Assembly (NCBI GenBank): GCA_964544585.1
Contig: CAZJBV010000002.1
Coordinates: 131,468-195,467 of the forward strand
Source: an uncultured Gammaproteobacteria bacterium
Lineage (GTDB): Bacteria > Patescibacteriota > Microgenomatia > 2-02-FULL-39-11
DNA: 64,000 bases
Reading direction: 5' to 3'
The notes under the pieces are model-generated. The model did no database searches. It saw nothing but the letters and a program-made list of their open reading frames with translations, and was not told the DNA's origin. The translations under genes were made by a program, and so were the position numbers. The first letter of the stretch is position 1. Each line of letters starts with the position of its first letter. Positions 29,863 to 64,000 of this stretch are shown here, piece after piece.

Positions 29863-29914
29863 CACCTCGGATGGTGGCAGTCCGCCATCTAGCGGACATG
29901 ACTCCTCCGAGGTG
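29863..29914. repeat. GC-rich palindromic element at the lepB 5' end
   Basis: cacctcggatggtgg ... ctcctccgaggtg arms (9-bp stem) with a nested ccgcc..gcgg palindrome in the loop. Confidence 0.65.
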
Positions 29915-29986
29915 AAGGAATCAGAACTATGGTAGATCTATAATTTAAGTGTAGTGGTATAATAAAAAACTGTCAAGGAAAAAATA

Positions 29987-30063
29987 GGACGCATAGCTCA
30001 GATGGCTAGAGCGTTGCATTCACATTGCAAAGGTCCCAGGTTCAAGTCCTGGTGCGTCCACCA
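29987..30063 (+). tRNA. tRNA-Val (anticodon CAC), with encoded CCA
   Basis: Hand-folded cloverleaf: acceptor ggacgca/tgcgtcc, D arm gctc..gagc, anticodon loop ttCACat, T arm ccagg-ttcaagt-cctgg, 3' CCA present. Confidence 0.85.
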
Positions 30064-30149
30064 AAAAAGAAAAGCTTGTTAAAAAATTTAAAAAAAAGAA
30101 AAAAAAAGGGGAAATAGGGCTATAATAAAAGCCTCTATAAAAAAAGGAA

Positions 30150-30344
30150 TTACGTTATTCTATTAAACGCTCTCCAGAAAGCTTCCTTTACATCTTCTAC
30201 AAAGTCTTCTCCTCGTTCGGTTAGAGCCTCCATATGCGAATTATAAAGCCCAGAAGACGCCAGATGTTGAGATTTTCCCATCTCATCAGCGGCTTCATAT
30301 CCGCATATCGGACATGTCCAATTCTCCATAAGTACCTTCCTCAC
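30150..30344 (-). CDS. Hypothetical small protein
   Basis: 64-aa ORF with a single CPIC motif and no other signal. Confidence 0.3.
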   Translation of the reverse strand: MRKVLMENWTCPICGYEAADEMGKSQHLASSGLYNSHMEALTERGEDFVEDVKEAFWRAFNRIT

Positions 30345-30435
30345 CCCCTTCCAAAAAATTTATAAATTAAACTATATTACCCGAAACTAATCAAGTAATC
30401 AATAAGAGAATTGTAAGAGGTTTGTAAGTGACATA

Positions 30436-30477
30436 GACACCTCCGAGGTGTGCGAATGCACTCCTCGGATGGTGGAG
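30436..30477. repeat. GC-rich palindromic element just past the stop of the convergent secreted-protein gene
   Basis: gacacctccgaggtg-tgcgaatgca-ctcctcggatggtgg. Same arms as the large elements, with a short loop. Confidence 0.7.
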
Positions 30478-30480
30478 GCT

Positions 30481-32724
30481 TTATATTCTTACCAAGGGAT
30501 TAACCGATGCTTTCTTTGGATTATAATTTACTATTAATTTTAATACTTTATTAACCTGCAGAGTAAATTTATATTCTTTCCAAGCTTCGCTTTTTCCTAA
30601 TTGATTATAACTAATTATATAATCTCCATCCTCACTAGGTGTAAATTCTAGACTGAATTTTCCAGATTTATCAGAATAATAGGTAATAATTCCTGAAGAA
30701 TCGGTCTCCAGCACCTCTCTTTTCAATGTTTTCAGAATAAATTTTCCAGGTTTGTTGCTAGTAATGCTAAATAGAGACTGAGTAGTTAGCTCGGGAAGTC
30801 TTTTTTCGTCAGCAACGGAAACTCCCTCAAGTCCCAAAAAATTTAAAATTTCTTGTATACTTTGAGTATTTTGTACCAACTGAATGTGATTGAGATTAAA
30901 AGTAAAACTGTTTGCGTCCTCTAGTTGGCTGCTCGATGTCAATACTGTTCCATCTCCTAAATCCGAATTTATTTTCTTTGTAGGTTTACCATCAACCCAA
31001 TTTCCCAACAGATTATCCATCGCGCTTGGCTTTTTTACCTCCAAATACTCTAAAGTTTTTTTCTCTATTCCAGAAATTGTCAAAACCGAAATATCATAAA
31101 AAGGCAATGAGAATTGATTATCTCGCAGCCAGGGATTTTCTCCTTCAATAAGATCGTCTTCCATTAATTGTCCATTCCACTTTATAAAATTAAATGTCGG
31201 CAGAATATCACGTATAGACGGTGATAGTGACTGTATCACCTGCCGCTTAGTTTCAAATGGATTTCCTAATCTAGTCCGGCAAAAATTAATTAGAGTATTT
31301 ACTGCTATCTTGTCGACTAAATTACTAGACCATATCTCACCATTTTCCCACAGAGGGTAGGCAAGTACCGTCCCCTGATGTGGAGTGCCCATCGTCACCA
31401 ACTTATCCACATTGTGATCTTCACCATTTTGCAGGATATAACTTCTGGCTACCAAACCACCCAAACTATGAGATACAATATCCACTTTTCCATTTGGTTG
31501 GATATTATCAATGAACTCCTTCAATTTTTGCCCGGCCGTCTCCATCGTCTGCCGCCAGTCGTATGCATAAACATAGAATTCCTCATTGAGTACCAATCCA
31601 GCATTTTGGCTCAAAGTTTGAATAATTCTATCGTAAATATCCGTATATGGAGCCATTATCCATGTATTACTTTGTGAAAGATTACAAGAAAGCAAGTCAT
31701 TTCTATTCCAACTCGCCCCCAGCCCGGGTATGAAAATGACTTTATTAGGTTTCGGCGTAGGTGTTGGCGGCAGTGGCGTAATCGGCACCCCCTCCGTCTC
31801 CTTCTCCGCATATCCGATTTGAAACTTTCCGGAAACACTGTTAAGCATACCAGTATACCAAGTTTTATCCATTCCACTCTCTCGCATTACAGTGTTACTA
31901 GCAACTCTATGATTATCAAAATCCTGATTTTGACCCTTATCAAGTACCGGATTCTCTGGATCACGGAACCAATTAATTCCATCATTAGACCAAGCGTGTC
32001 CAATTCCAGCTTCTCCCGTATACCACAATTCATAAATCCCACCATCGTAAATTGCCATAGGGCTTGTAGCTCCATTTTCCCATGAATAATTAGGATCATA
32101 AGCTAATACAGGATCTGCATTTTTATCCCAATTTATTCCATCAGTAGATGTTGCAAATCCAGTTTGCCAAATACTTCCCGAACCTCCTACAAACCACATA
32201 TAATAAGTATTCCCAAGCTTGATTACAGAGGGCGCACCAACTCCTTTATTATTCCAGTTAGCGTAAGGAACAATTACAGAGCTCGGATAAATATTCCAGC
32301 TAGTCCCATCCGACGATGTTGCATATTTTATTTCAAAACTCTGCCCATTATTAATTCGAATGTTATACCACATCTTGTACACCGAACCATCTTTTATCAC
32401 AGTTGGTTGTTCTGCATTGTTACCAAAAGAGAGTGGGTTATTAATATATTTTGTCCAAGTAATTCCATTAGATGATTCTGCATATCCTATGTACGAATTT
32501 GTCCAAGCAGAGGAATCTGTTCCTGTATACCATATTTTGTAAGTATCTCCATCTTTTATCACTGTTGGATCAGCGGCATGGTAGCTATCCCAACCAGAAG
32601 GAGAATTTGAAATTACTGGATTACTGCTCGATTTTGTCCAAGTTGCTAGGGTGTTTGAGGGAGTAAGTAAGGAAAAAGTCGAGATTAGTGCCAAGAAAAC
32701 TAAGGGCAAGATTAGTTTTCGCAT
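30481..32724 (-). CDS. Secreted two-part protein: N-terminal beta-propeller repeats (GH43/GH32/GH130-like) plus a C-terminal lipase-like alpha/beta hydrolase
   Basis: Signal peptide MRKLILPLVFLALISTFSLL. About six repeats of the form P(T/S)VIKDG-TYKMWYTG. Lipase nucleophile elbow VSHSLGGLVARSY. Confidence 0.5.
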   Translation of the reverse strand: MRKLILPLVFLALISTFSLLTPSNTLATWTKSSSNPVISNSPSGWDSYHAADPTVIKDGDTYKIWYTGTDSSAWTNSYIGYAESSNGITWTKYINNPLSFGNNAEQPTVIKDGSVYKMWYNIRINNGQSFEIKYATSSDGTSWNIYPSSVIVPYANWNNKGVGAPSVIKLGNTYYMWFVGGSGSIWQTGFATSTDGINWDKNADPVLAYDPNYSWENGATSPMAIYDGGIYELWYTGEAGIGHAWSNDGINWFRDPENPVLDKGQNQDFDNHRVASNTVMRESGMDKTWYTGMLNSVSGKFQIGYAEKETEGVPITPLPPTPTPKPNKVIFIPGLGASWNRNDLLSCNLSQSNTWIMAPYTDIYDRIIQTLSQNAGLVLNEEFYVYAYDWRQTMETAGQKLKEFIDNIQPNGKVDIVSHSLGGLVARSYILQNGEDHNVDKLVTMGTPHQGTVLAYPLWENGEIWSSNLVDKIAVNTLINFCRTRLGNPFETKRQVIQSLSPSIRDILPTFNFIKWNGQLMEDDLIEGENPWLRDNQFSLPFYDISVLTISGIEKKTLEYLEVKKPSAMDNLLGNWVDGKPTKKINSDLGDGTVLTSSSQLEDANSFTFNLNHIQLVQNTQSIQEILNFLGLEGVSVADEKRLPELTTQSLFSITSNKPGKFILKTLKREVLETDSSGIITYYSDKSGKFSLEFTPSEDGDYIISYNQLGKSEAWKEYKFTLQVNKVLKLIVNYNPKKASVNPLVRI

Positions 32725-32801
32725 AAAGAGATTAATATATTAAAAAATAAAGCAAGCAATTAGAATTGTCAATAATCTATTTGAGATGATAGAATTCATT
32801 C

Positions 32802-33674
32802 ATGCCCGAATGCAATGTATGTAAATCTACAAATATCATTGAATGGAAGAAAATCGATAAATACAAACTCCTCAAATGTAACCAATGTTTAATAATACAA
32901 ACTTTTCCTCAACTATCAGAGTCTGAACTTGAATATATTAATAATAGGTTTTACGGCAGACAACCCTTTACAAGTGTTGCTTATAACACGTCTGCAGAAT
33001 TTTTTTTTAAAAGAGGAATAAAATTTTATGAAGAAATAAAACTATTAAAAATTAAAGGTAAAAAACTATTAGATATTGGTTCTGGCTACGGATATAATCA
33101 ACTAGTCGCAAGAAATAACGGTTTAATTACCATCGGAATAGATCTCTCAAAAAATGCCGTTGAATTTGCAAGAAATATTTTTAATTTGAATGTAATCCAG
33201 GAGTCTTTCTATGCGTACAATTTTAAGAATTCGAAATTTAGTATCATCACAATGTATGATTCATTGGAGCATGTACGAAATCCAAAAGAAACAATTAAGA
33301 AGGTTAATAAACTTTTATCTGACGATGGTTATCTTATACTTCAGACGCCTAATATTGACAGTATAATGTATCTTCTAACTAAATCGAAATGGGTATGGTT
33401 ACTACTACCTTTTCATTTTTATCATTTCACGTCTGCTTCTATATCAAAAATACTTTCTGAATCAGGGTTTAGGATTGTAAAAATATATACATCGGATGAT
33501 AGGCAGGAATTTATCAAAAATATCTTATGGATAATTAAAATTAGAGAAGATGGAAAACTTAGATTTTTTTATAAACCTCTCTATATTTTTTTACATTTAC
33601 CATATTTTCTAAATTGGATTTGGAATCTATTTAATAAAGGAGGGCTACTTCATATTTATGCCCAGAAGATCTAA
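32802..33674 (+). CDS. Class I SAM-dependent methyltransferase with an N-terminal zinc-ribbon
   Basis: CNVCKS...CNQC at the N-terminus and SAM motif I LLDIGSGYGYN. Confidence 0.65.
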   Translation: MPECNVCKSTNIIEWKKIDKYKLLKCNQCLIIQTFPQLSESELEYINNRFYGRQPFTSVAYNTSAEFFFKRGIKFYEEIKLLKIKGKKLLDIGSGYGYNQLVARNNGLITIGIDLSKNAVEFARNIFNLNVIQESFYAYNFKNSKFSIITMYDSLEHVRNPKETIKKVNKLLSDDGYLILQTPNIDSIMYLLTKSKWVWLLLPFHFYHFTSASISKILSESGFRIVKIYTSDDRQEFIKNILWIIKIREDGKLRFFYKPLYIFLHLPYFLNWIWNLFNKGGLLHIYAQKI

Positions 33675-34500
33675 GATTACCGCCATTATTCTTACCCTCA
33701 ACGAAGAAAAAAATATTGCAGACTGTTTGAAGTCGGTGAAGTGGGTTGATGAGATTGTGGTAGTAGACTCGGGCAGTACAGACAAAACCATCGAGATAGC
33801 AAAAGAATATACAGATAAAATTTATTATCACAAATTTGAAAGCGATTTTTCAAAACAGAGAAATTTTGCCATCACCAAAGCAAAAGGGGAGTGGATACTA
33901 TTCTTAGACGCCGACGAGACTTTGCCAAAAGGCTCGGAAGAGAAAATAAAAGAACTCATTGCCAATACACCTTCCAGGAGTCCCTGCCTGCCGGCAGGCA
34001 GGCATTCCGGCCATCTGGAAGGTGAAACGATCGAAGGCTTTTGGTTTCCTCGTCGAAACTACATCAATAAAGCTAGGTACTTAAAACATGGATTATTTTA
34101 TCCTGATTGGCAATTAAGATTGTTAAGATACACAAAAGGCTTGCAATTTATTGGTAGCATCCACGAGCAGCCGGATATTTCTCATGATAAAACACAAAAA
34201 GTGAAAGATGTAGAAATATTCCACAACTCCTCTCGGACAAAATATGATTCCTTTTTTTCATTTTACCGCCTTTTTCCATTTATTAAAGCCGACGGGCAAA
34301 AATTAGCATCTTCATCTACTTCAACTACCCAGATTTTCTTATCTTCTTTTTCTACTTTTTTTCTGGAACTCTGGTGGAATCTGGTAAGAAGACAAGGACA
34401 TAAAGATGGATGGCCTGGAATTAGAGGTACTTTAATTTGGGCCTTGTACAAGGAACTTTCCGTGATTTACGCCCTCGTATCTCGTATAATAAAGAGGTGA
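33658..34500 (+). CDS. Family 2 glycosyltransferase carrying a palindromic-element insertion
   Basis: ITAIILTLNEEKNI...VVVDSGSTDKT GT2 N-terminus and the DADE motif. Element at 33968-34024 encodes PSRSPCLPAGRHSGHLEGE in frame. Confidence 0.75.
   Translation: MPRRSKITAIILTLNEEKNIADCLKSVKWVDEIVVVDSGSTDKTIEIAKEYTDKIYYHKFESDFSKQRNFAITKAKGEWILFLDADETLPKGSEEKIKELIANTPSRSPCLPAGRHSGHLEGETIEGFWFPRRNYINKARYLKHGLFYPDWQLRLLRYTKGLQFIGSIHEQPDISHDKTQKVKDVEIFHNSSRTKYDSFFSFYRLFPFIKADGQKLASSSTSTTQIFLSSFSTFFLELWWNLVRRQGHKDGWPGIRGTLIWALYKELSVIYALVSRIIKR
33968..34024. repeat. GC-rich palindromic element (variant arms) inside the GT2 gene
   Basis: acaccttccagg-agtc-cctgcctgccggcaggcagg-cattccggccat-ctggaaggtg. 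10-bp outer stem plus the cctgccggcagg core. Confidence 0.7.
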
Positions 34501-36763: not shown

Positions 36764-37695
36764 ATAAAATATTTATTATCATACCCACTTATAACGGCTT
36801 GAAAGACACATTTGAATGTCTCAAAACAATTTCTAAACTAAATTATAATAACCAAGAAATAAAAACAGTTATTGTCGATAACGCCTCAACTGACAAAACT
36901 CCTGAATTCCTGGAGAAAGAAAAATCAAAATATAATCTCCGCAAAATCTTCAAAAACAATAAAAATCTCGGCTTTGCCAAAGCCTGCAATATAGGCATAA
37001 AGTATGCCTTAGAAAATAATGCAGACTACATCCTCCTCTTAAATAGCGACGTGGTAATAGATCAAAACTTCCTTCCATCTCTGATAGATTCTGATTTAGA
37101 CATCATCAGCCCCGTAGTACAATTTCCCCTCGATCCTGATGGAAAAGATTATCGCTACGATTATGGTGGATACGTCAATTGGTGGACAGGCCGCACATAT
37201 CACGACGACAGAAAAGTTTTTTCCAAAAGACATCGAGGCACCTCGGACGTAAAGACACCTCCGAGGTGGCCCGCCCGCCTGCCGGCAGGCAGGGAAGGGA
37301 CTCCTCGGACGGTGGAGGGAGCAGGAAAACCGGAATATATTCCCGTTGACTATATGTCCGGCTGCAGTTTACTCATCAAAGCAGAAGTTTTTAGAAAAAT
37401 CGGCCTTTTTGATGAAAAATTTTTTATGTATTTCGAAGACGTCGACTTCTGCGTCAGGGCCAAAAAGGCCGGTTTTAGAGTCGCGGTGGATCCGCAATCC
37501 CTCATATTCCACAAGCTCGGCGGATCGATCAAACGCTGGTCAACAAAGGCAATTTACTATAATATCTCCAGTAATGCCATTTTTATCCTCAAATACTGCG
37601 GCATAAAAACCCCAATTGCTCTGGGATATCTTTCACTTCTCACCGCCAAAATTATAATGGATAAGATTTTATATAAACTAGACGCTAGACGCTGA
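36760..37695 (+). CDS. Family 2 glycosyltransferase carrying a large palindromic-element insertion
   Basis: IIIPTYNGLKDTFECL...VIVDNASTD and the DxD motif. Element at 37238-37318 encodes [27 protein letters not shown] in frame. Confidence 0.75.
   Translation: MNKIFIIIPTYNGLKDTFECLKTISKLNYNNQEIKTVIVDNASTDKTPEFLEKEKSKYNLRKIFKNNKNLGFAKACNIGIKYALENNADYILLLNSDVVIDQNFLPSLIDSDLDIISPVVQFPLDPDGKDYRYDYGGYVNWWTGRTYHDDRKVFSKRHRGTSDVKTPPRWPARLPAGREGTPRTVEGAGKPEYIPVDYMSGCSLLIKAEVFRKIGLFDEKFFMYFEDVDFCVRAKKAGFRVAVDPQSLIFHKLGGSIKRWSTKAIYYNISSNAIFILKYCGIKTPIALGYLSLLTAKIIMDKILYKLDARR
37238..37318. repeat. GC-rich palindromic element, long form
   Basis: cacctcggacg-taaa-gacacctccgaggtgg-cccgcccg-cctgccggcagg-cagggaaggga-ctcctcggacggtgg. 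Confidence 0.85.
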
Positions 37696-37712
37696 TAAAC
37701 TAGACGCTAATT

Positions 37713-46382: not shown

Positions 46383-48170
46383 TTGACAATGACAAATCAC
46401 GAAATAGCCAAACTTCTCCAAAACATTGCCGCCGCCTACACAATTTTAGGCGCCATGCCTGCCGGCAGGCAGGAAAATCGTTTTAAAATCCTAGCCTACG
46501 AAAATGCAGCCAAAGGTGTAGAGTCATCAAATAGAGAAATAGAAGATCTCTGGAAAGAGAAAAAATTATCCGAAGTCGAAGGCATTGGCAGTTCAATTGC
46601 CTCCCATCTAGATGAGCTATTTCGCAAGGGAAAAGTAGCCCATTTTGAGTCCATTATCAAAAGAGTTCCTGAAGCTGTATTTCCACTTCTTGAAATTCCC
46701 GGTTTTGGAGCCAAAAAATCGTATAAATTGGCCAAAGTGCTAAATTTAAAATCGGCAAAAACAGTAATTTCTGATCTCGAAAAAGCTGCCCGTCAGGGAA
46801 AAATAGCCAAAATTGAAGGTTTTGGAGAGAAATCTCAACATGACATTCTAGAATCAATTGCGTTATATAAATCCCTCGGCGGTAGAGAGCGCCGTATGCC
46901 CCTTCCCACAGCCGGAGAACTGGCTAAAAAAATAGTTTCTTATTTAAAAAGATATTCAGAAACACTCGATATTGCTCCGATGGGAAGCCTGCGCCGCATG
47001 AAAGAAACTGTTGGTGATATTGACCTCGCTGTTGCTACCACCAAACCTGACAAAGTAATTCAGGCTTTTTTATCTTTTCCTGGCATTTCCAAAATAGTCG
47101 AAGAGGGAAAAGAGGGAGCTACCATCCTTTTACAAAACGATGAGCATATTGATCTGCGGATTATAGACCCTCAAAGGTGGGGGTCTATGCTCCAATATTT
47201 TACCGGCAGTAAAAACCACAATATTAACCTGCGTGAGTTTGCCCTCAAAAAAAATCTTTCCCTGAACGAATACGGCATAAAAAATCTAAAAACGGGAAAA
47301 ATGAATACATTTAAAACTGAGAAGGATTTTTATAAATTCTTAGGCCTTCCCTGGATTCCGCCTGAAATCCGGGAAGACAGAGGAGAAATAGAGGTAGCCA
47401 TCAACAGTAAATTACCTCACCTGGTAGAACTTGCCGACGTCAGGGGTGATCTTCAGGTACACTCAAATTACCCCATCAAACCTAGCCACGATTTAGGCCG
47501 AGATTCAATGGAGGATATCCTCCATAAAGCAAAAAGCTTAGGTTACGAATATATTGCTTTCACCGAGCACAACCCCAATGTATCAAATTTAAAAGAAAAA
47601 GAAATAATAGAAATTATGAAGCGACGAAAATCAAAAATTGAGCAACTAAAATCGAAAACAAAAAGTGTTCGAATACTCAATCTACTCGAAATAGACATTT
47701 TAGCAAATGGTAAATTGGCTTTACCTGAAAATGCCTTTGCTTATATCGACGCCGGCCTAGCCTCGATCCATTCTAGCTTCAATCAGGACAAAGATGCAAT
47801 GACAAATAGAATCCTCAAAGGATTAAGCCACCCTAAAATAAAAATATATGCCCATCCAACGGCCAGACTCATCAATAAACGCGAGGGTATAAAAGCCGAC
47901 TTCAATGTGATTTTTAACTTTTGCGCCAAACAAAAAAAAGCACTCGAAATAAATTCATATCCTCTCCGTCTTGATCTTCCGGACGATTTGATAATCGATG
48001 CCAAGAAAAAAGGTTGTAAGTTTTCCCTGGGAACGGACGCCCATGATAGTGCCGGGATGTTTCTTATGCCTTATGGCGTGGCCATGGCCAAACGAGGCTG
48101 GCTAACCAAAAATGACATAATAAACACAATGGAGTATAATGAACTTTATTCTTGGCTGACGAGGAGGTGA
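46383..48170 (+). CDS. polX: Family X DNA polymerase with a C-terminal PHP phosphoesterase domain (PolX)
   Basis: HhH / Pol-beta-like N-terminal half ([27 protein letters not shown]) and a PHP domain with His/Asp motifs. The 16-nt core of the palindromic element (cctgccggcaggcagg) at 46458-46473 encodes MPAGRQE. Confidence 0.75.
46458..46473. repeat. Remnant core of a palindromic element inside polX
   Basis: Exact 16-mer cctgccggcaggcagg shared with the long-form elements. Confidence 0.5.
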
Positions 48171-49644: not shown

Positions 49645-51009
49645 ATGAATCAAATCCTCATTCTTCTCGGCAAAATCATTTCTGCCCTCAGTAAAATTAC
49701 CAACCTTGGTAGTGGTAGCACCTGGCCGGGTGAAATAGCGTTAATAACAAATCCAAATATTTTGGCTCATTTTTTTAACAAAGTAAAAAAAGGAATCATT
49801 ATAATCGCCGGCACAAATGGTAAAACCACTACCGCAAAAATGGTTCAAGAAATGATAAGCTCACAGTATCCCATAGACACTATAGTTCACAACGATTCAG
49901 GTGCCAACCTCTTAAACGGCATAACTTCAGCCTTTATAAAAAAGGCCAAAATTATTACGAACAGTTATTTTGACTGGGCAGTCTTGGAAGTCGACGAAAA
50001 TACTCTTCCCATTTTACTTAAATATCACCTCAGCCATAAAGACACCTCGGATGGTGTGCGCATAAAGACACCTCCGAGGTGGCCCGCCCGCCTGCCGGCA
50101 GGCAGGGAAGGGACTCCTCGGATGGTGGAGAAACCAGCAAAGCCCAAAATTGTCATTGCCCTTTTAAATCTTTTTCGCGACCAGCTCGATAGATATGGAG
50201 AGGTAGATACCATTGTCTCAAAATGGTTGTCTGCCCTCAAAAATTATTTGGGAAAAGTCAATCTCATTACCAATGCCGATGATCCCACCATTGCCTACAT
50301 GGGTCTTTCTTGTCAAAAGAATGTCACTTTTTTTGGTATAGACAAGGCAAAAGGCATAAAAGAAATAGAGCATGCTACAGACTCCATCTTTTGCCCGCTA
50401 TGTGGACATAAATTAAGTTATGAGGCCGTCTATTATTCTCATATAGGTAGATGGGCTTGTCCATCATGCAACCTTAATCGTCCTAAAATCCAAACCGCAA
50501 GTATAAAAACCAAATTACCAGGTCTATACAATTTTTATAATACACAATGCGCCGTATTAATTGCTCAAACAATCGGAATAAAAGAATCTAATATAAAGTC
50601 AGCTCTCCAAAATTTTACCCCCGCCTTTGGCCGCCAAGAGGAATTCAGCATCAATGGTAAAAAAATTAAAATCTTCCTCTCCAAAAACCCAGTCGGCTTC
50701 AATGAATCTCTAAAAACTGTCATCGATCTCGGCGCCAGGCAAGTGCTTCTCGTTTTAAACGATAGGATACCCGACGGCCGCGACGTCTCCTGGATTTGGG
50801 ACGTAGACTTTGAAATAATTCCTGAAAACACCCAAATCATAGCTTCAGGAGAAAGATGCTATGACCTTGCCCTCCGCCTCAAATACGCAGGCAAAAAATT
50901 TGAAATAGAAAAAGACTTGAGAAAATCCATCCAGTCAGATTATATTTTGCCTACCTATTCGGCCATGCTCGAAGTTCGAAAAATTTTGACGGGCAAAAAA
51001 ATTCTTTAA
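49645..51009 (+). CDS. murT: Mur-ligase-like lipid II isoglutaminyl synthase subunit MurT, carrying a palindromic-element insertion
   Basis: Mur ligase P-loop IIAGTNGKTTTA, Cys4 ribbon CPLCGH…CPSCN, and a DUF1727-like C-terminus. Element at 50041-50129 encodes [31 protein letters not shown] in frame. Confidence 0.65.
   Translation: MNQILILLGKIISALSKITNLGSGSTWPGEIALITNPNILAHFFNKVKKGIIIIAGTNGKTTTAKMVQEMISSQYPIDTIVHNDSGANLLNGITSAFIKKAKIITNSYFDWAVLEVDENTLPILLKYHLSHKDTSDGVRIKTPPRWPARLPAGREGTPRMVEKPAKPKIVIALLNLFRDQLDRYGEVDTIVSKWLSALKNYLGKVNLITNADDPTIAYMGLSCQKNVTFFGIDKAKGIKEIEHATDSIFCPLCGHKLSYEAVYYSHIGRWACPSCNLNRPKIQTASIKTKLPGLYNFYNTQCAVLIAQTIGIKESNIKSALQNFTPAFGRQEEFSINGKKIKIFLSKNPVGFNESLKTVIDLGARQVLLVLNDRIPDGRDVSWIWDVDFEIIPENTQIIASGERCYDLALRLKYAGKKFEIEKDLRKSIQSDYILPTYSAMLEVRKILTGKKIL
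50041..50129. repeat. GC-rich palindromic element, long form
   Basis: gacacctcggatggtg-tgcgcataaa-gacacctccgaggtgg-cccgcccg-cctgccggcagg-cagggaaggga-ctcctcggatggtgg. Confidence 0.85.
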
Positions 51010-51026
51010 CTACCAAACTACAAACT

Positions 51027-51854
51027 ATGAACTACAAACTAACTATCGGCTGGCTCTATCCTGATTACATGTCGACCTATGGAGATCGTGGTAATATTAT
51101 TTGTCTGACCAAACGATGCCAATGGAGAAAAATTAATGTCGAAATTAAGAAAATAGAATTTGAAACACTCCCACAAGAAATCGATTCTTGCGATTTGATT
51201 ATCGGCGGCGGAGCCCAAGATAGGCAACAGGAATTGGTGGCAAAAGATCTTTTAAAGAAAAAAAATATTTTTAGAATATTATTTAATAGGGGAGTGCCAG
51301 GTCTTTTTGTCTGCGGCTCTCCCCAACTTCTTGGTCACTATTACATGACAGGGGATGGGAAAAAATTGGCAGGCCTAGGAATTTTCGACTATGTTACCAA
51401 GCATTTCGGACATGACAAACCCCGCTGCATCGGCAACACAGTCGCAAAAGTCATCGGCATAAACACCTCGGATGGAAAGACACCTCCGAGGTGGCCCGCC
51501 CGCCTGCCGGCGAGGCAGGAAGGGACTCCTCGGATGGTGGAAGGATCACAAACCATCGTCGGTTTTGAAAATCATGGTGGTAGAACATATTTAGGCTCCA
51601 GCGCAAATCCCTTTGCCAAAGTTTTAGCTGGCTATGGCAATAATGGGGAAGATGGATACGAAGGCGCAATCTACAAAAATGTCATCGCCTGCTACTACCA
51701 CGGCCCCTTTCTTCCCAAAAATCCCCATATTGCAGATTGGCTTCTTACCCGCGCACTTGAAGTCAAATACAAAAAAGTTATACAATTGGGACCTCTCGAT
51801 GATGGACTTGAATGGCAAGCGCATGATTTTATATTAAATAGGGTCAGACCTTAA
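51027..51854 (+). CDS. gatD: CobB/CobQ-type glutamine amidotransferase GatD (lipid II isoglutaminyl synthase glutaminase subunit), carrying a palindromic-element insertion
   Basis: LYPDYMSTYGDRGNI N-terminus characteristic of GatD. Catalytic Cys in FVCGSPQLLGHY. Sits directly downstream of murT. Element at 51463-51542 encodes [27 protein letters not shown]. Confidence 0.65.
   Translation: MNYKLTIGWLYPDYMSTYGDRGNIICLTKRCQWRKINVEIKKIEFETLPQEIDSCDLIIGGGAQDRQQELVAKDLLKKKNIFRILFNRGVPGLFVCGSPQLLGHYYMTGDGKKLAGLGIFDYVTKHFGHDKPRCIGNTVAKVIGINTSDGKTPPRWPARLPARQEGTPRMVEGSQTIVGFENHGGRTYLGSSANPFAKVLAGYGNNGEDGYEGAIYKNVIACYYHGPFLPKNPHIADWLLTRALEVKYKKVIQLGPLDDGLEWQAHDFILNRVRP
51463..51542. repeat. GC-rich palindromic element, long form (core variant cctgccggcgaggcagg)
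   Basis: aacacctcggatgg-aaa-gacacctccgaggtgg-cccgcccg-cctgccggcgaggcagg-aagggactcctcggatggtgg. Confidence 0.85.
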
Positions 51855-55640: not shown

Positions 55641-55946
55641 ATGAAAAAAACCCAAAACAAATTAACCCTAGATACCGTCAAACACGTTGCCGATCTAGCT
55701 AAACTACAATTAAATAAAGAAGATATAAATAAATTTCAGGAACAATTATCCGATATTTTAGATTTTGTTGCTAAATTAGGCGAAGTTGATACCAAAAACA
55801 TTCCTCCCACGAGCCAAGTCACCGGTGTTGAAAATGTATTTAGAGAAGATAAAGTAAGAAAATCACTTTCCCAAGACGAAGCACTAGCAAACGCCAAAAG
55901 AAAACACAATGGTTATTTTGTCGTCAGAGCCATTTTCGAAGAATAA
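55641..55946 (+). CDS. gatC: Asp/Glu-tRNA(Asn/Gln) amidotransferase subunit C
   Basis: Length 101 aa. LTLDTVKHVADLAKLQL…FVAKLGEVDT pattern. Position upstream of gatA. Confidence 0.75.
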   Translation: MKKTQNKLTLDTVKHVADLAKLQLNKEDINKFQEQLSDILDFVAKLGEVDTKNIPPTSQVTGVENVFREDKVRKSLSQDEALANAKRKHNGYFVVRAIFEE

Positions 55947-55950
55947 GAAT

Positions 55951-57357: not shown

Positions 57358-58883
57358 ACAATTACGAACCAATAATTGGTCTTGAAATTCACGTCGAACT
57401 AAAGACCAAATCAAAAATGTTCTGTGGTTGCAGGGCCGATTGGTTTGGTTTGCCCCCAAATTCCAATACTTGCCCTGTTTGTCTAGGTCTACCTGGTGCA
57501 CTTCCGGTTCCCAACAAAAAAGCAGTCGAATGGTGTATCATGCTCGGCCTTGCCCTAAATTGCCAAATCCCCGAAACATCTAAATTTAATCGAAAAAATT
57601 ATTTTTACCCCGATCTTCCCAAAGGTTATCAGATATCACAATACGATCAACCCCTTGCGATAAATGGATGGTTGGAAATAAATAAGCCACAAGACACCTC
57701 GGATGGTGGCGAAGCAACGACTTCGACTCCTCCGAAGGTGCGAAGGGACCGGAAAAGAATAGGCATCACCCGCGTCCACATGGAGGAAGATACAGGCAAA
57801 CTTCTCCATGCCAAAGTCGAGGGTTCAAACGTTTCCTTAGTCGATTTTAATAGAAGCGGCGTCCCTCTCGTCGAAATAGTTACAGAACCTGACATAAGAA
57901 GTAGTGAGGAAGCTCGAACTTTTCTTAAAAAACTCCACCAAATAATTCGCTACTTGGGTATTTCCGACGCCGATATGGAAAAAGGCTCCATGCGCCTCGA
58001 GCCAAATATCTCTCTCCGAAAAAGAACAGGCGACAAAGACACCTCGGACGGTGTCCGCCAGCCGGCGGACTCCTCCGAGGTAAAGACACCTCCGAGGTGG
58101 CCCGCCCGCCTGCCGGCAGGCAGGGAAGGGACTCCTCGGATGGTGGAGGAAGCATTACCAAACTATAAAGTCGAAGTCAAAAATATCAACTCATTTAATT
58201 TTGTTAAAAAAGCAATCGATTTTGAATTAGAGCGCCATACGGATATTTTAGAAAGGGGTGAGTTGCCTATACAAGAAACTCGCGGCTGGGACGAAAAAAA
58301 AGGCATAACATATTCTCAAAGATCAAAAGAAGAAGCCCACGACTACCGCTATTTTCCCGAACCAGATATTCCTCCAATGAGATGGGGAAAAGAGCAAATA
58401 TCAAAAATCAAAGATCAAAAACCCGAACTTCCCGATGCTAAAATAAAAAGATTTATCAAAGATTATAAGTTGTCAGAATACGACGCAACAATTTTGACAG
58501 ACGAAAAATCAACCGCTGACTATTTCGAAAAAGCCTTAAAGACACCTCGGGGGTGGCCGAATGGACTCCCCCGAGGTGGAGAGACCGGAATAAACCCCAA
58601 AACCATCGCCAATTGGATTATAAACAAACGGATTGATACATCAAGGATTTCGCCAGAAGAACTCATCAAATTGATAACAAGTAAAACACAAACTATTCAA
58701 ATAGATGAAAAAGAATTGGAATCAATCATCAAAAGAGTCCTCTCTCAAAACCCCAAAGCCGTCTCCGACTACAAAGCCGGAAAACAACAAGCTATAATGT
58801 TTCTAGTCGGCCAAGTAATGCGAGAAACCAAAGGAAAAACTGATGCGAAAAAGATAAAAACAAAGCTAAAAAATATGATATAA
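57354..58883 (+). CDS. gatB: Asp/Glu-tRNA(Asn/Gln) amidotransferase subunit B, interrupted in frame by three palindromic elements
   Basis: N-terminus [23 protein letters not shown] and the C-terminal YqeY/GatB tail. Insertions at 57693-57740, 58038-58148 and 58541-58579 are all in frame. Confidence 0.85.
57693..57740. repeat. GC-rich palindromic element (short arm-only form with a nested cgaag..cttcg hairpin)
   Basis: gacacctcggatggtgg-cgaagcaacgacttcg-actcctccgaaggtg. Confidence 0.7.
58038..58148. repeat. Composite GC-rich palindromic element: an arm-only unit followed by a full long-form unit
   Basis: gacacctcggacggtg-tccgccagccggcgga-ctcctccgaggt-aaa-gacacctccgaggtgg-cccgcccg-cctgccggcagg-cagggaaggga-ctcctcggatggtgg. 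Confidence 0.85.
58541..58579. repeat. Short-form GC-rich palindromic element; same loop as the 19067 copy but with a co-varied stem
   Basis: gacacctcggggg-tggccgaatggact-cccccgaggtgg. The stem cgaagg/ccttcg in the 19067 copy is cggggg/cccccg here. Confidence 0.75.
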
Positions 58884-58893
58884 TCAGCTTAGT

Positions 58894-59118
58894 ATGAAAA
58901 AACTTCAGAAATTACCAGCAAATTATGATTTTTTCATTAAAACAGACACATCATCTTATAAAGGTGAATGGATTGCAATTACCGGTAAGAAAATTATATA
59001 TCACGGTAAAGATGCTCAAGAAGTCTACAGAAAAGCAAAGCAAAAATATCCAACTGCCAATGTTTCACTCGCCAAAGTTCCCGACGAGCAAATTCTGATA
59101 TTAAGATTCTCCCAATGA
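58894..59118 (+). CDS. Small hypothetical protein (74 aa), probably co-transcribed with the downstream aspartic protease
   Basis: 4-nt overlap with the next ORF. No assignable motif. Confidence 0.4.
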   Translation: MKKLQKLPANYDFFIKTDTSSYKGEWIAITGKKIIYHGKDAQEVYRKAKQKYPTANVSLAKVPDEQILILRFSQ

Positions 59119-59522
59119 TTATTTTCCGCTATAAAGAAGAACCATCTGGCAAGAAAAACGAACTAATCAAAAGACCAATTGCTGATATATATATTAGAAG
59201 CAAATCCGGGCCCTGGATAGAATTTCATCCCTATATAGATTCAGGTGCGGATGTCACTCTTATCCCTCTGACTCTCGGAAACCTTATTGGACTAAAAGTT
59301 GATGAAAAGAAAATTGAACAAATAGGAGGCATTAGAGGTAGTGTTCCTGCCATTTATTCTCAAGAAAAAATACGAATTGGAGACAATATACTCTCAGCTC
59401 GCATCGCTTGGGCCTTAATTGAAGAAGTTCCACCTCTCCTCGGACGCACTGATATCTTTGATAGTTTCCATGTCACTTTCAAACAAAACCAAGGAATAAT
59501 TATTTTCGATGAACGAAAATAA
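59115..59522 (+). CDS. Retropepsin-like (clan AA) single-domain aspartic protease
   Basis: Catalytic motif YIDSGADVTLIP (D-S-G-A) and the flap-like LLGRTDIFDSFHVTF. Confidence 0.6.
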   Translation: MIIFRYKEEPSGKKNELIKRPIADIYIRSKSGPWIEFHPYIDSGADVTLIPLTLGNLIGLKVDEKKIEQIGGIRGSVPAIYSQEKIRIGDNILSARIAWALIEEVPPLLGRTDIFDSFHVTFKQNQGIIIFDERK

Positions 59523-59669
59523 TTACCCAAAGCCATCTCCGACTACAAAGCCGGCAAAGTTAAAGTTATAATGTTTCTAGTCGGTCAGGTAATGAAAGAA
59601 CTCAAAGGGAAAGGAAACGCAGGAGCGATTAAAGAGAAATTATTAAATTACTTATCAAAATATGGATAG
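59523..59669 (+). pseudogene. Orphan duplicate of the gatB 3' end (no start codon)
   Basis: Encodes [32 protein letters not shown]…* . About 85% nt identity with gatB 58752-58836 ([29 protein letters not shown]). Confidence 0.7.
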
Positions 59670-60360: not shown

Positions 60361-60388
60361 ATATGAACAAAGCATCGTAATTCATTTT

Positions 60389-60442
60389 ATGTCTGATTTT
60401 GTTCACCTTCACTGCCATCCAGAATATTCAATGTACAGTTAA
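60389..60442 (+). pseudogene. Orphan duplicate of the dnaE 5' end (17 codons then stop)
   Basis: atgtctgattttgttcaccttcactgccatccagaatattca… matches the dnaE start at 61121 (atgtctgattttgttcatcttcactgtcattcggaatattca…) with 4 substitutions. Encodes MSDFVHLHCHPEYSMYS*. Confidence 0.7.
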
Positions 60443-60535
60443 ACAAACTATAGGATATTGACAAATCCTACCATTATGGTAATATGTGATGACTAAACTC
60501 TCCTGCAACACCGCAAGGTCTTTGCAGGATTTTTT

Positions 60536-61117
60536 TTGGCCAACTCATGTATAATAAGTCTGATGAAGCAGGAAAGATGTATAATTCTTGTTGATGGCAG
60601 TAACTTCTATTTTAAACTCAAGGACCTAAATCTCCATCGATTAATTAATTTTGATTTCTCCAGTTTCTCAAAAACATTGGCAGGAGATAGACAACTTACC
60701 TACGCCACATATTATATTGGCGCAGTACGGAGTGATAATACTAAAAAGACACAAAAATTATTCAATCAACAGCGTAAATTACTCAACCATCTAAGAAAAC
60801 ATAATTTTAAATACTCTTTAGGATATCTTTTGAAATCCAACGGTCGGTTTCGTGAGAAGGGTGTAGATGTGAATATAGCCGTCGATATACTAGTTTCTGT
60901 ATATGAAAATCTTTGTGATTATATAATCCTGGTTTCTTCAGATACCGATCTTCTTCCTGCAATCAAAAAAGCAAAAGAGAAAGGGAAAACCGTAGAATAT
61001 ATAGGGTTTTCCCATAGACCGAGTATTGCTATGGTAGCAAATTGTTCAAAGTCAAGGTTGTGGACAAAAGAAGATCTTTTACCTTTTATAAGAAAGGCAA
61101 ATAAACAGAAAAAATAA
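60536..61117 (+). CDS. NYN-domain (LabA/PIN-like) putative ribonuclease, paralogue of 42621-43133
   Basis: CIILVDGSNFYFKLKDL… and ILVSSDTDLLPAIKKAKEKGKTVEYIGF. Confidence 0.6.
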   Translation: MANSCIISLMKQERCIILVDGSNFYFKLKDLNLHRLINFDFSSFSKTLAGDRQLTYATYYIGAVRSDNTKKTQKLFNQQRKLLNHLRKHNFKYSLGYLLKSNGRFREKGVDVNIAVDILVSVYENLCDYIILVSSDTDLLPAIKKAKEKGKTVEYIGFSHRPSIAMVANCSKSRLWTKEDLLPFIRKANKQKK

Positions 61118-61120
61118 GCT

Positions 61121-64000
61121 ATGTCTGATTTTGTTCATCTTCACTGTCATTCGGAATATTCACTTTTGGACGGACTTTCCAAGATTCCAGACTTACTCGT
61201 CCGCACCAAAGAACTGGGTATGGATTCCCTCGCCCTTACAGATCATGGCGCCATGTATGGCGCCATCGAATTTTATACCAAAGCAGAGGATGCAGGCATA
61301 AAGCCAATTATTGGCATGGAGGCATACCAAGCGGCTCGATCCAGATTTGATAAAGAAGCTGGCCAAGACCGCGATCAGTACCACCTCGTCCTTCTCGCCA
61401 AAAACAAAACCGGCTATCACAATCTTATTAAACTGACAACCCTCTCCCACTTGGAAGGTTTTTATTATAAACCCCGCATCGACATGGATTTATTACGGGA
61501 GTATAAAGACGGACTCATTGCCCTTTCAGGCTGCATGAATGGGTTGATCCCGAGTCTTCTTCGCGATAATCAAATTGATTCCGCCGAAAAAAAAGCCTTA
61601 GAATTCTTGGAAATTTTTGGCAAAGACCATTATTATTTTGAAATCCAAAAGCACTCCAAAATACCAGAACTCGATAAAATCAATGATCAATTAATTACCC
61701 TTTCGCGAAAACTTGGTATTCCCCTCGTTGCTACAAATGATGCTCATTATCTCACCCCGGAAGATGTCGAGGCCCAGGAAATTTTACTTTGTATAGGCAC
61801 ACAAAGAACAATCCTCGAAAAAAATCGACCCCTGTCTATGATCTCATCTCCCGATTTTTATCTTCGTTCGGCAGAAGAGATGAAAGGCCTTTTTTTAAAG
61901 CATCCCGAGGCAATAGAGAATACTAAAAAAATTGCCGAGCTTTGTAATTTGGAAATAGATCTTGGCAACTGGATTCTGCCTCATTTTACCGTTCCGCCTG
62001 ATTTTACCGCCAATACATACCTCAAAAAACTTGCCTTTGATGGGGGTAAGATGCGCTTTGGAAAAATCACCGATGAAATAAAGCAAAGGTTGGATTATGA
62101 ATTGGAAATTATCGCCCATAAAGGCTACTCGACATATTTTTTGGTCGTTGCCGATTTCGTTAACTGGGCCAAGGAAAAAGGCATCGCCGTTGGTCCAGGC
62201 AGAGGTTCAGCAGCCGGAAGCCTGGTTGCTTACTGCATGCGCATTACCGATCTCGATCCTCTATTTCATGAACTTCCCTTTGAAAGATTTTTAAATCCCA
62301 ATCGCCCCTCCCCTCCGGATATTGATTTGGATTTTGCCGACAATCGTCGCGACGAAGTCATTGAGTACGTTACCCATAAATATGGCCAAGACAAAGTAGC
62401 CCAAATAATAACCTTTGGTACCATGGAGGCTCGCCAGGCCGTCCGCGATGTAGGTAGAGCCCTCGGCATGCCCTACGCCCAACCCGACAGAATAGCTAAA
62501 TTGATCCCCATAGGGGCCCAAGGATTCCCCATGACCATAGAAAAGGCTCTCGAGCTATCTCCCGAATTATCTTATGCCTATCAACACGAGGCAGACACAA
62601 AGCGCCTGATTGATCTGGCACGCAAACTCGAGGGGGTCGCTCGCCACGCCTCCGTCCACGCCGCCGGCGTGGTCATCGCCGATAAGCCTCTTACTCAATA
62701 TGTACCCCTGCAAAAAGAAACCAAAGGAGACAGAGTCATTACTCAATACGATATGTATTGTCTCGATCTCAATGCTGCGGGAGGAGGAAAAGCAGTCGGC
62801 CTTCTTAAAATGGATCTATTGGGGCTAAGAAACCTCTCCATTTTGGAAAAGGCTGTCAAATTTGTTAAAGATAGCCGTGGGGTAGAGGTCGATTTTCACA
62901 GCATCCCGCTCGATGAAAAAAAAGCCTACGAAATCATTGCCTCCGGAGAAACGACGGGTATTTTTCAACTAGAATCACCTGGCATGCGTCGACTAGCCAA
63001 AGACCTCAAGCCCACCAAATTTACAGATATCTCGGCCATGGTTGCCCTTTTTCGTCCCGGGCCCATGGATTGGATACCCATTTTTATCGAAGCCAAGCAA
63101 AATCTAAAAAAAATAAAATACCCTCACGAAGCCCTAAAACCGATTCTCTCAGAAACCTATGGTATAGCAGTCTATCAGGAGCAATGTATGCAGATAGCCC
63201 ACGTTATGGCAGGTTATTCCCTCGTTGAAGCAGATAAATTGAGAATGGCCATAGGCAAAAAAAAGCCGGAGGTAATGAAAAAGGAGAAGGAGAAGTTTAT
63301 CTCAGGATGTATCAAGCAAGGATACTCAAAAAGTGTAGCCGAAAACGTCTTTTCACTTATAGAAAAATTTGCCGGCTACGGCTTCAACAAAGCCCACAGT
63401 GCCTCTTACGGCATGATTGCTTATCAGACCGCATATATGAAGGCCAAATATCCCATAGAATTTATGTGCGCAGTTTTGGCAGCCGAATCTCATGGATCGG
63501 GTCCAGCCCGAGATGAGAAAGTCGCCCAAGCCGTCATGGAGTGCAAAAGAAATAATATCCCTCTCCTTCCGCCCGACATAAACAATTCGGATAGCGATTT
63601 TACTATCGAAAACCTGCCTGCCCGTCCGGCAGGCGGGCCTGCCGGCAGGCAAGGAGAAAAAATTCGCTTCGGCCTCTCAGCCGTCAAAAACGTAGGCACA
63701 GCCGCAATCGACTCTATTCTTTCCGCCCGCATAAAAGGAGGACTTTTTGTTTCTTTAACCGATTTTATCTCCCGCGTCGATCTCCAAAAGGTAAATAAAA
63801 AAACTCTTGAAAGCCTCATCAAAGCAGGGTGTCTTGATAGATTTGGCAAAAGGGCAAGTTTACTTGCCGCCATACCCCAGTTTGTTGAAATTGCCCACAA
63901 AAGACAAAAAGAATACGAATCAGGCCAGGCAAGCCTCTTTTCCGATGAAGAAACTTCGACCGTTATCGATGTATTGCCCGAACTGGACGAATTTTCCCAA
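61121..64000 (+). CDS. dnaE: DNA polymerase III alpha subunit, 5' part; runs off the window end. Carries a palindromic-element-derived insertion
   Basis: PHP domain start MSDFVHLHCHSEYSLLDG and polymerase core motifs (GPGRGSAAGSLVAYC, PDIDLDF). Hand translation found no stop through position 64000. Element at 63603-63650 encodes NLPARPAGGPAGRQGE. Confidence 0.85.
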   Translation, partial: MSDFVHLHCHSEYSLLDGLSKIPDLLVRTKELGMDSLALTDHGAMYGAIEFYTKAEDAGIKPIIGMEAYQAARSRFDKEAGQDRDQYHLVLLAKNKTGYHNLIKLTTLSHLEGFYYKPRIDMDLLREYKDGLIALSGCMNGLIPSLLRDNQIDSAEKKALEFLEIFGKDHYYFEIQKHSKIPELDKINDQLITLSRKLGIPLVATNDAHYLTPEDVEAQEILLCIGTQRTILEKNRPLSMISSPDFYLRSAEEMKGLFLKHPEAIENTKKIAELCNLEIDLGNWILPHFTVPPDFTANTYLKKLAFDGGKMRFGKITDEIKQRLDYELEIIAHKGYSTYFLVVADFVNWAKEKGIAVGPGRGSAAGSLVAYCMRITDLDPLFHELPFERFLNPNRPSPPDIDLDFADNRRDEVIEYVTHKYGQDKVAQIITFGTMEARQAVRDVGRALGMPYAQPDRIAKLIPIGAQGFPMTIEKALELSPELSYAYQHEADTKRLIDLARKLEGVARHASVHAAGVVIADKPLTQYVPLQKETKGDRVITQYDMYCLDLNAAGGGKAVGLLKMDLLGLRNLSILEKAVKFVKDSRGVEVDFHSIPLDEKKAYEIIASGETTGIFQLESPGMRRLAKDLKPTKFTDISAMVALFRPGPMDWIPIFIEAKQNLKKIKYPHEALKPILSETYGIAVYQEQCMQIAHVMAGYSLVEADKLRMAIGKKKPEVMKKEKEKFISGCIKQGYSKSVAENVFSLIEKFAGYGFNKAHSASYGMIAYQTAYMKAKYPIEFMCAVLAAESHGSGPARDEKVAQAVMECKRNNIPLLPPDINNSDSDFTIENLPARPAGGPAGRQGEKIRFGLSAVKNVGTAAIDSILSARIKGGLFVSLTDFISRVDLQKVNKKTLESLIKAGCLDRFGKRASLLAAIPQFVEIAHKRQKEYESGQASLFSDEETSTVIDVLPELDEFSQ
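63603..63650. repeat. Degenerate GC-rich palindromic element (two adjacent core palindromes) inside dnaE
   Basis: cctgcctgcccgtccggcaggcgggcctgccggcagg. Contains the exact cctgccggcagg core. Confidence 0.6.

Follow-up and report, generated by a model that had tools for sequence, protein, structure and literature searches.

Repetitive extragenic palindromic (REP) hairpins that are mobilised by REP-associated tyrosine transposases (RAYTs) are well described, as in E. coli and Pseudomonas (PMC3116915, PMC5581495), with the RAYT examples in the latter study drawn from proteobacterial genera. REPs of the GTAG/CGTC type have also been found in frame within proteins of Opitutus terrae, Rickettsia conorii and other bacteria, where the intragenic units are single or dimeric, add 20-30 residues, lie in many cases in replication and repair genes, and may be inserted repeatedly in one gene (Di Nocera et al. 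2013, PMC3733652). The classic in-frame case is that of the Rickettsia palindromic elements (RPEs), which are palindromic and ~150 bp in length (review PMC10969869). Here, we analyse a 64-kb stretch of DNA (hereafter the window) from an uncultured groundwater-type bacterium, a Gottesmanbacteria-like member of Microgenomates, that contains both a family of hairpin repeats and a gene for a RAYT-like transposase of the Y1/HUH type. Like the intragenic GTAG/CGTC REPs, these REP-type hairpins are found in frame inside known proteins, and like RPEs they are in-frame palindromic repeats that occupy permissive loops in unrelated housekeeping genes and are compatible with fold and function. An earlier note on the same DNA had compared the repeats with RPEs and had missed the transposase gene at 9.6-10.3 kb; given the presence of this gene, REP/RAYT systems rather than orphan RPEs are the closest known kind.

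Hairpin repeats and a candidate transposase

The repeats stand out from the sequence of the window by several measures. A 12-nucleotide (nt) palindrome, CCTGCCGGCAGG, occurs six times where 0.04 occurrences are expected, and a repeat search recovered four long copies of 83 nt at 37241, 50054, 51466 and 58072 (87-95% identity to the reference copy at 37241), along with a looser family of ten 32-nt members. Short hairpin forms start at 19064, 29858, 30434, 57691, 58035 and 58539. Using an alignment of 25 short copies (A2), we built a covariance model (R1) and scanned the window with it without filters. This returned 11 matches spanning 19-59 kb, ten of them on the plus strand (33-69 bits) and one on the minus strand (24 bits). 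The earlier note had reported at least 12 copies of a single element between 19.0 and 63.7 kb. The repeat family is real, and its copies align with each other at the nucleotide level well beyond their GC-rich core; the note had merged two elements, which are separated below.

Each unit has a fixed order, consisting of a 5' tag (T[AT]AAG), a first arm (ACACCT-NNNN-GG-TG), an inner stem-loop (TCC-GAA-GGA, TGC-GAA-GCA, CCC-GAA-GGG, or longer), a second arm (ACT-CC-N'N'N'N'-AGGTG) and a 3' tail (GAGGAA). Across A2 the hairpin is paired in 95.3% of cells, and changes on both sides are seen at 7 of its 16 pairs. The covariation score is 0.20 compared to 0.06 for shuffled alignments, with none of 500 shuffles scoring as high, and the signal collapses when the partner columns are slid against each other. 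The central tetranucleotides covary across the two arms (CCGA/TCGG, CGGA/TCCG, GGAA/TTCC, CGAA/TTCG and CGGG/CCCG), such that the stem of the copy at 58534 differs from that of the copy at 19059 by compensatory changes (CGGG/CCCG versus CGAA/TTCG). When folded as single-stranded DNA (ssDNA), the copies mostly have z-scores of -3 to -8. The hairpin cores measure 37, 38, 44, 47, 53 or 60 nt and are thus not constrained to multiples of three, which argues that the unit is defined at the nucleic-acid level and is read through, rather than being a coding module. A scan of the window at Rfam gathering thresholds found four tRNAs only, and the hairpins match no family in that database.

The product of the transposase gene matches the Pfam family Y1_Tnp with 29.6 bits (cut-off 23), and its sole significant NCBIfam match is to the REP-associated tyrosine transposase model (NF047646; E 2e-13, 50 bits). 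The NCBIfam IS200 model did not match the window protein, and amongst its homologues matched P0225 only (E 0.03, 14.5 bits, cut-off 55). When the single sequence was searched against the PDB, E. coli TnpA-REP (4ER8) ranked first with both the HUH and tyrosine motifs aligned, the HUH and DYIYINP of 4ER8 pairing with HFH and RYIHLNP in the query. In a profile search with the transposase alignment, ISDra2 TnpA (E 0.009) matched the HUH region alone, and 4ER8 (E 0.027) both motifs; these matches place the protein in the superfamily and do not settle its subfamily. We found at least 519 homologues of ~225 amino acids (aa) from Gottesman-, Woese-, Shapirobacteria and other Patescibacteria. The residues H89, H91 and R148-Y149-x-H-x-N-P are invariant in 21 aligned homologues, and the family has a conserved N-terminus, MPGRxIPL. 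The ATG at 10272 is probably the true start of the gene, which would make the protein 227 aa long.

The window contains one copy of the transposase gene, and its neighbours vary by lineage: glmS and TauE in the window, and tmk/dcd, secD/mazE or prs/ahcY elsewhere. A conserved chromosomal site for the gene was considered and rejected, as none of 80 loci neighbours glmS, TauE or the dehydrogenase. On the minus strand, the hairpin upstream of the gene includes TTGACA followed ~17 nt on by TATATT (10284-10300), and on this basis it may hold the promoter of the gene.

The dispersed hairpins and the transposase gene are connected by a shared motif. The window has 11 occurrences of ACACCT-N4-GGTG against an expectation of 0.02; eight of these are in dispersed copies, three are in the two flanks of the transposase gene, and none are elsewhere. 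In metagenomes, the transposase gene is bracketed by the same hairpin architecture in all 37 of the homologue loci inspected, and five of the 37 include the CACCTCCGAGGTG box exactly as it stands in the dispersed repeats. At locus L078 both flanks are complete inverted hairpins (ACACCTCTAAGGTG-loop-ACACCTTAGAGGTG) that score 36.6 and 33.4 bits with R1. Furthermore, JACREK01, the most repeat-rich assembly in our genome scan (an exact-arm search of one genome per species), has a member of the transposase family on contig JACREK010000069 with CTAA-centred flanks like those in the window, and repeats and transposase therefore co-occur in two genomes, that of the window and JACREK01. Neither the hairpin pattern nor the transposase was found in viral contigs, and we see no phage link. 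Collectively, the data suggest that the REP-type hairpin repeats are probably those of a widespread family of RAYT-like (Y1/HUH) transposases in Microgenomates, and that the transposase encoded at 9589-10272 would be the enzyme that moves the hairpins.

We propose that this transposase, whose gene is set between hairpins of like design, would recognise the folded single-stranded hairpin and copy it elsewhere, in many cases next to or within a hairpin that is already in place. Landing at resident hairpins would give rise to composite copies, tandem copies and repeatedly colonised sites. As the genomes are gene-dense, selection would retain only copies in short spacers and frame-preserving copies in permissive surface loops, and the surviving genic copies would be translated as 12-35 extra residues rich in Pro, Arg, Gly, Ser and Thr. 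The long form would have originated when an independent 20-nt palindrome, CCTGCCTGCCGGCAGGCAGG, landed in the loop of a hairpin, and this variant would then have spread in the genome.

Insertions in gatB and other genes of the window

Inside open reading frames (ORFs) we find eight of the 11 window copies. Seven are in frame and in plus orientation, in gatB (four copies at three sites), murT, gatD and a gene for a family 2 glycosyltransferase (GT2); the eighth is reversed and lies in a second GT2 gene. All genic copies lack stop codons and keep the frame of their host gene. The identities given to the host and neighbouring genes in the earlier note (lepB, the two GT2 genes, polX, murT, gatD, gatB, murG and dnaE) were confirmed by Pfam, the peptides it quoted for murT, gatD, gatB and dnaE were reproduced by translation, and that of the GT2 gene at 37238 can be read directly off the sequence. 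The hairpin that it placed at the 5' end of lepB is present and is probably located in the 5' untranslated region, because GAGGTGG is found 7 nt before a second ATG on the minus strand. The shared frame of the four long copies, which the note had pointed out, carries no weight, because with two open frames it has a chance of ~1 in 8 and the other frame is used in L031. In the spacer between ftsW and murG, the stop codon of ftsW is a TAA within the 5' tag of the hairpin.

Ten of the 11 copies are in plus orientation, including two that adjoin minus-strand genes. GC skew is negative throughout the window (1-64000), though the plus strand carries most genes, and the excess of plus-oriented copies together with this skew could reflect a replication-strand bias of insertion.

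The long form is a hairpin that carries a separate 20-nt palindrome inside its loop. This palindrome is perfect, and it is found solo in AT-rich contexts elsewhere (L013:1445, L031:2991 and L106-L108). The inserts in polX and dnaE, which had been described as a core remnant and a further copy of the repeat, respectively, have no R1 match; both are the 20-nt palindrome alone, an element separate from the hairpin. The inner 35 nt are identical across the four long copies of the window and differ in the long copies of JACQJU01, which suggests recent spread or homogenisation within the window genome. Part or whole of another hairpin arm directly precedes each of the four (Table 1), and such composite copies would represent new copies that landed at resident hairpins. 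The direct repeats of 9-10 nt around the long copies at 37238 and 51463 consist of hairpin-arm sequence, and may indicate insertion into an older copy rather than target-site duplication.

Relative to solved orthologues, the proteins of the window have extra segments at residues ~111-133 and 223-269 of GatB, 127-168 of MurT and 126-174 of GatD. A syntenic Gottesmanbacteria contig (L032/L033) comprises polX, LemA, an M48 peptidase, murT, gatD, a GAF-ANTAR gene, glnA, gatCAB, one unknown gene and dnaE. In L032 the sites in murT, gatD, gatB (all three), polX and dnaE are empty, and an R1 scan of L032/L033 gave zero matches in 21 kb. The dnaE site is empty in L031 as well. With the segments missing from both distant orthologues and this syntenic relative, the earlier view of them as insertions is borne out. 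For the two GT2 genes, PDB alignments stop short of the inserts, and the insertions there are putative.

In an AlphaFold model of GatB (mean predicted local distance difference test score, pLDDT, of 73), the inserts form coil between secondary-structure elements with pLDDT below 50 (residues 114-130 at site 1, 227-265 at site 2 and 400-411 at site 3), in agreement with the earlier expectation that the extra residues fall in loops. In a 29-sequence alignment of GatB (A1), all three of these sites are hypervariable amongst Microgenomates, in that some orthologues are empty (438-445 aa), some have this element, and some have unrelated palindrome-type peptides. Examples of the latter are ATKQSSEIATLTPFARND, LRASATKS..IATSPSAPRND and RHSGDSDVTPEDSRIQAGSWTSQDD (A1 columns ~125-190, 300-350 and 485-520). 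The presence of unrelated peptides of this kind at the same three loops suggests that several GC-rich hairpin families colonise the same permissive sites. A search of 1.84 billion representative proteins with the 45-residue gatB insert peptide gave three weak matches, and is uninformative on prevalence.

The best homologues of the window GatB are 73-76% identical and are labelled Gottesmanbacteria. Two independent assemblies, L030 and L031, have the element at the same gatB sites as the window, and this allowed the inserts to be compared with the surrounding gene. Between the window, L030 and L031, the gatB core has a nucleotide identity of 69-73%, falling to 43-49% at third codon positions, and identical residues keep the same codon in 46-51% of cases. 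Despite this near-saturation, the site-1 element is identical at 42 of 42 nt whichever two of the three are compared, all 14 of its codons are unchanged, and its peptide is common to several Gottesmanbacteria. Site 2 is variable: L030 has a short form in the frame used in the window, L031 a long form in another frame, and P0003 a short form in another frame. The identity at site 1 and the variation at site 2 suggest that the elements are either maintained or turned over at the nucleotide level while their sites stay fixed, unlike inserts that simply decay in place.

Table 1. Transposase gene, hairpin copies and solo palindromes in the window.
Feature	Position	Strand	Remarks
RAYT-like Y1/HUH tyrosine transposase gene	9589..10272	-	227 aa from ATG at 10272; ORF 9589-10308
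Hairpin upstream of transposase gene, CCAGGTGTCC..ACACCTCTAAGGTGT..ATTGACACCTTTGG	10296..10348	-	family D14 direct repeat; ssDNA z -6.4; ACACCT-N4-GGTG
Hairpin downstream of transposase gene, TACCAAAGGTGTCC-TATCTG-GGACACCTCTAAGGTGG	9536..9584	-	family D14; overlaps glmS stop codon; ACACCT-N4-GGTG; weak R1 match, 15-16 bits
Short hairpin, ftsW-murG spacer	19059..19113	+	R1 68.5 bits; ssDNA z -7.9
Hairpin upstream of lepB (minus-strand gene)	29855..29924	+	R1 42.4 bits
Short hairpin, spacer after tRNA gene, beyond stop of 747-aa hydrolase gene	30429..30484	+	R1 69.1 bits
Hairpin with nested 20-nt palindrome, reversed in GT2 gene 33658-34500	33966..34024	-	R1 24.1 bits; frame open throughout
Partial hairpin arm and long form, in frame, GT2 gene 36760-37695	37238..37324	+	R1 42.7 bits (37255-37324); z -3.3
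Solo GC palindrome CCTGCCGGCAGGCAGG in polX	46456..46473		7 residues added; no R1 match
Arm fragment and long form, in frame, murT	50034..50137	+	~32 residues added; R1 44.0 bits (50068-50137) and 18.7 bits
Truncated arm and long form, in frame, gatD	51463..51549	+	R1 42.9 bits (51480-51549)
Hairpin, gatB site 1	57686..57752	+	R1 36.8 bits
Short hairpin, first of tandem pair, gatB site 2	58031..58085	+	R1 33.1 bits; pair folds with z -6.4
Long form, second of tandem pair, gatB site 2	58086..58155	+	R1 44.2 bits
Short hairpin, gatB site 3	58534..58588	+	R1 68.8 bits
Double GC palindrome in dnaE (LPARPAGGPAGRQG)	63613..63654		14 residues added; ssDNA z -2.8; no R1 match
Sequence preceding long copies	37238; 51463; 50042; 58039		37238, CACCTCGGACG then TAAAG; 51463, ACACCTCGGATGG then AAAG; 50042, full arm; 58039, full unit

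Some of the genes that host inserts show other irregularities in their vicinity. A duplicate of the first 14 codons of dnaE (MSDFVHLHCH..EYS), 91% identical, lies 732 nt further upstream (60388-60430 and 61120-61162, family D13), and the two copies bracket an NYN-domain gene (60536-61117) that looks like a cassette inserted at the dnaE start with regeneration of the dnaE 5' end. Similarly, the last ~43 codons of gatB are duplicated downstream with 84% identity (58752-58838 and 59526-59612, family D7). This duplicate follows a 135-aa ORF (59115-59522) in the same frame after a TAA; the ORF has no Pfam match and contains a DSGAD motif that is retropepsin-like by eye, and the arrangement looks as though another small gene had entered the end of a host gene and duplicated that end. 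The heptanucleotide repeat (CAAACTA)n (family D9) is present at 25901-25947 and at 51014-51046, where it fills the murT-gatD spacer.

Copies in other genomes

Our genome scan identified the element in 29 stretches, 17 of which belong to JACREK01. The carriers are Gottesman-, Woese- and Woykebacteria, unclassified Microgenomates and Patescibacteria, and a few metagenome-assembled genomes (MAGs) labelled otherwise. Strong R1 matches number 52 in 31 other loci, or 63 with those of the window. If a copy is counted as mid-ORF when the ORF that spans it is 200 aa or longer and extends at least 40 aa to either side, 31 of the 63 strong copies qualify, 26 in the orientation of the gene and five reversed. 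Their host genes include those for LeuRS, RtcB, a Mur ligase, FemAB, 3-dehydroquinate synthase, DUF763, a TPR protein and an MFS transporter. Inverted doublets separated by a few nt are intergenic in L002, L011, L017, L020, L021 and L012, and intragenic in L006 and L009; the window has none, its single pair being tandem.

Several variations amongst these loci are worth recording. In L009:2-1711, an RtcB gene contains an intein splicing domain as well as an in-frame inverted hairpin doublet. Some of the element-carrying contigs (L004, L005, L007, L014, L015, L027 and L008) are from MAGs labelled Gammaproteobacteria or Nitrospinota and have a GC content of 37-45%, like loci from the Candidate Phyla Radiation (CPR); some of the oddly labelled contigs bear different end tags (GAAGTT...TGAC). 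The occurrence of the element in these MAGs could reflect either mis-binning or a wider host range. A general role of the repeat as a cassette of stop codon, hairpin and ribosome-binding site was considered and rejected, given that a start codon is found at the right distance in two to three of 20 spacer copies, namely L028, the window copy at 19059 and perhaps L026. The copies in L028 and at 19059 supply a stop codon and GGAGG shortly before the next start.

Origin of the repeats and relation to known mobile DNA

Several of our observations count against assigning the hairpins to the transposase. The flanks of the transposase gene in the window score 12-16 bits with R1, and their CTAA centre is absent from the dispersed copies, the nearest being CGAA at 19067. 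In the 338 kb surrounding 80 transposase genes there are 13 R1 matches, and thus many transposase carriers may have other repeat variants or none. The match of the protein to NF047646, at 50 bits, falls below the 80-bit equivalog cut-off, and its PDB matches are weak (E 0.01-0.03). Unlike REP/REPIN-RAYT systems (REPINs being doublets of inverted REP units with a short spacer between them), the repeats lack a GTAG or CGTC tag, their ends being T[AT]AAG (5') and GAGGAA (3'). As the gene neighbourhood is not conserved, the transposase gene may also behave as an insertion sequence itself. Lastly, the identity of orthologous copies at gatB site 1 in the face of near-saturated third codon positions is not expected of a purely selfish element.

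Some of these points would be compatible with orphan palindromic elements of the RPE or miniature inverted-repeat transposable element (MITE) kind, which would owe their spread to recombination, slippage during replication or an unrelated transposase, with the proximity of the Y1 transposase being a coincidence. The repeats do behave like RPEs, with in-frame copies located in loops of housekeeping genes, the hairpins beside the transposase gene have a different central tetranucleotide and low R1 scores, and most transposase loci have no R1 match nearby. We nevertheless consider a coincidence unlikely, since every ACACCT-N4-GGTG in the window lies in a repeat or a transposase flank and the flank architecture is conserved across the transposase family, at some loci down to the precise box seen in the dispersed repeats; the R1-matching flanks of L078 and the co-occurrence of repeats and transposase in JACREK01 also speak against it. 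A different proposition is that the host selects the hairpins for a function in RNA or DNA, for example as mRNA stabilisers, processing or pause sites, providers of ribosome-binding sites, or protein-binding sites. Such a function would be consistent with the covariation that preserves the stem, with the invariance of gatB site 1 in three lineages, with the prevalence of mid-ORF copies in the orientation of the gene, and with the stop codon and GGAGG contributed by L028 and the window copy at 19059. It appears rather improbable, however, in light of a syntenic relative without any copy in the same genes, the scatter of copies, in either orientation, over unrelated genes and at positions that do not correspond, the small number of spacer copies with a start codon at ribosome-binding distance, and the lack of a match to any Rfam family. 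The occurrence of gatB site 2 variants in different frames likewise suggests turnover rather than conservation.

The two remaining explanations concern the inserted segments themselves. Intervening sequences are a known feature of the rRNA genes of CPR genomes, and elements as strongly structured as these might be removed before the mature protein is made, as a small intron or protein-splicing element, in which case toleration in the protein would be unneeded. We find this very hard to reconcile with genic copies that are without exception stop-free and in the host frame. Many cores are not multiples of three (37, 44 and 47 nt), so precise removal of the hairpin would shift the frame; in addition, an intein would be far longer than 12-35 residues, none of the intron families in Rfam is matched, and the spacer copies are identical in design. 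An origin of the segments as ancestral loop sequence of low complexity, or as an artefact of assembly, is scarcely credible: although the same gatB site-1 peptide is present in several Gottesmanbacteria, the same 60-83 nt sequence recurs in four unrelated genes, L032 and distant orthologues have empty sites, and the independent assemblies L030 and L031 have the element at the same sites. We also raise the possibility, which we consider less likely than not, that intragenic hairpins are no passive passengers and are actively maintained, either by the transposase repeatedly re-copying or converting resident hairpins (concerted evolution within essential coding sequence) or by host selection of the hairpin; active maintenance would account for the nucleotide identity of the gatB site-1 element in lineages whose third codon positions are near-saturated.

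Viewed alongside described systems, the repeats resemble REP/REPIN-RAYT systems in being short imperfect palindromes in many copies (with hairpin cores here of 37-60 nt), in having a Y1/HUH transposase with HUH and YxxxNP motifs, and in forming inverted doublets in some genomes and clusters of adjacent copies. The hairpins on either side of the transposase gene share ACACCT-N4-GGTG with the repeats and may be members of the repeat family, as in those systems. They depart from these systems in that the transposase is ~225 aa with an MPGRxIPL N-terminus, scores below the NCBIfam cut-off and has no conserved context, and in that the host belongs to CPR/Microgenomates. Moreover, REPs are mostly extragenic by definition, whereas 8 of the 11 window copies and about half of those elsewhere are intragenic. 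Sequence family, end tags and phylum distinguish the repeats from the intragenic GTAG/CGTC REPs, as do the second palindrome nested in the loop and the nucleotide identity of orthologous intragenic copies across lineages. Lineage and unit length set them apart from RPE-1 to RPE-10; unlike RPEs, for which we know of no transposase partner, they have a core of 37-60 nt and a candidate RAYT-like partner, and they show turnover and homogenisation. The transposase is of the same superfamily as those of IS200/IS605 elements, with which the repeats also have in common hairpin ends in single-stranded form and a short stretch of conserved sequence on the 5' side of the hairpin; this stretch hints that insertion takes place 3' of a target pentanucleotide and leaves no target duplication. 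In contrast to those elements, the dispersed units lack a gene, and the IS200 model matches only P0225. A MITE would have terminal inverted repeats and a target-site duplication; here the hairpin arms serve as inverted repeats, and the flanking direct repeats of 9-10 nt may, as noted above, stem from an older copy.

The RPE-like interpretation first given to the repeats is supported, and its core, a palindromic repeat of selfish appearance that is tolerated in frame inside essential genes, came through all the tests that were run; the accompanying statement that such a repeat survives only where it is in frame is too strong, because copies also survive between genes. The note knew of no description of this behaviour for this kind of genome, and in the literature on palindromic elements covering CPR, Patescibacteria and Microgenomates we likewise found no description of such a system. 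The repeats and transposase look like a REP/RAYT-type system in CPR bacteria with unusually heavy in-frame occupancy, and like a previously undescribed branch of known mobile DNA.

REP/RAYT systems are regarded as extragenic, and what looks to be a related system is found here across Microgenomates, whose genomes are small and gene-dense with little spacer DNA, with approximately half of its copies inside conserved genes. These copies provide a natural experiment in how much extra loop sequence is tolerated by essential enzymes, such as GatCAB, MurT/GatD, LeuRS and DnaE. Insertions of this kind may explain part of the protein length variability of CPR bacteria, and could be one reason why CPR assemblies are fragmented and genes are mis-called. 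With orthologous copies that are identical in nucleotide sequence, it becomes testable whether maintenance is due to the transposase, the host, or both. If the intragenic hairpins are indeed actively maintained, they would constitute a persistent REPIN-like replicator population that lives mainly inside the genes of ultra-small CPR genomes.

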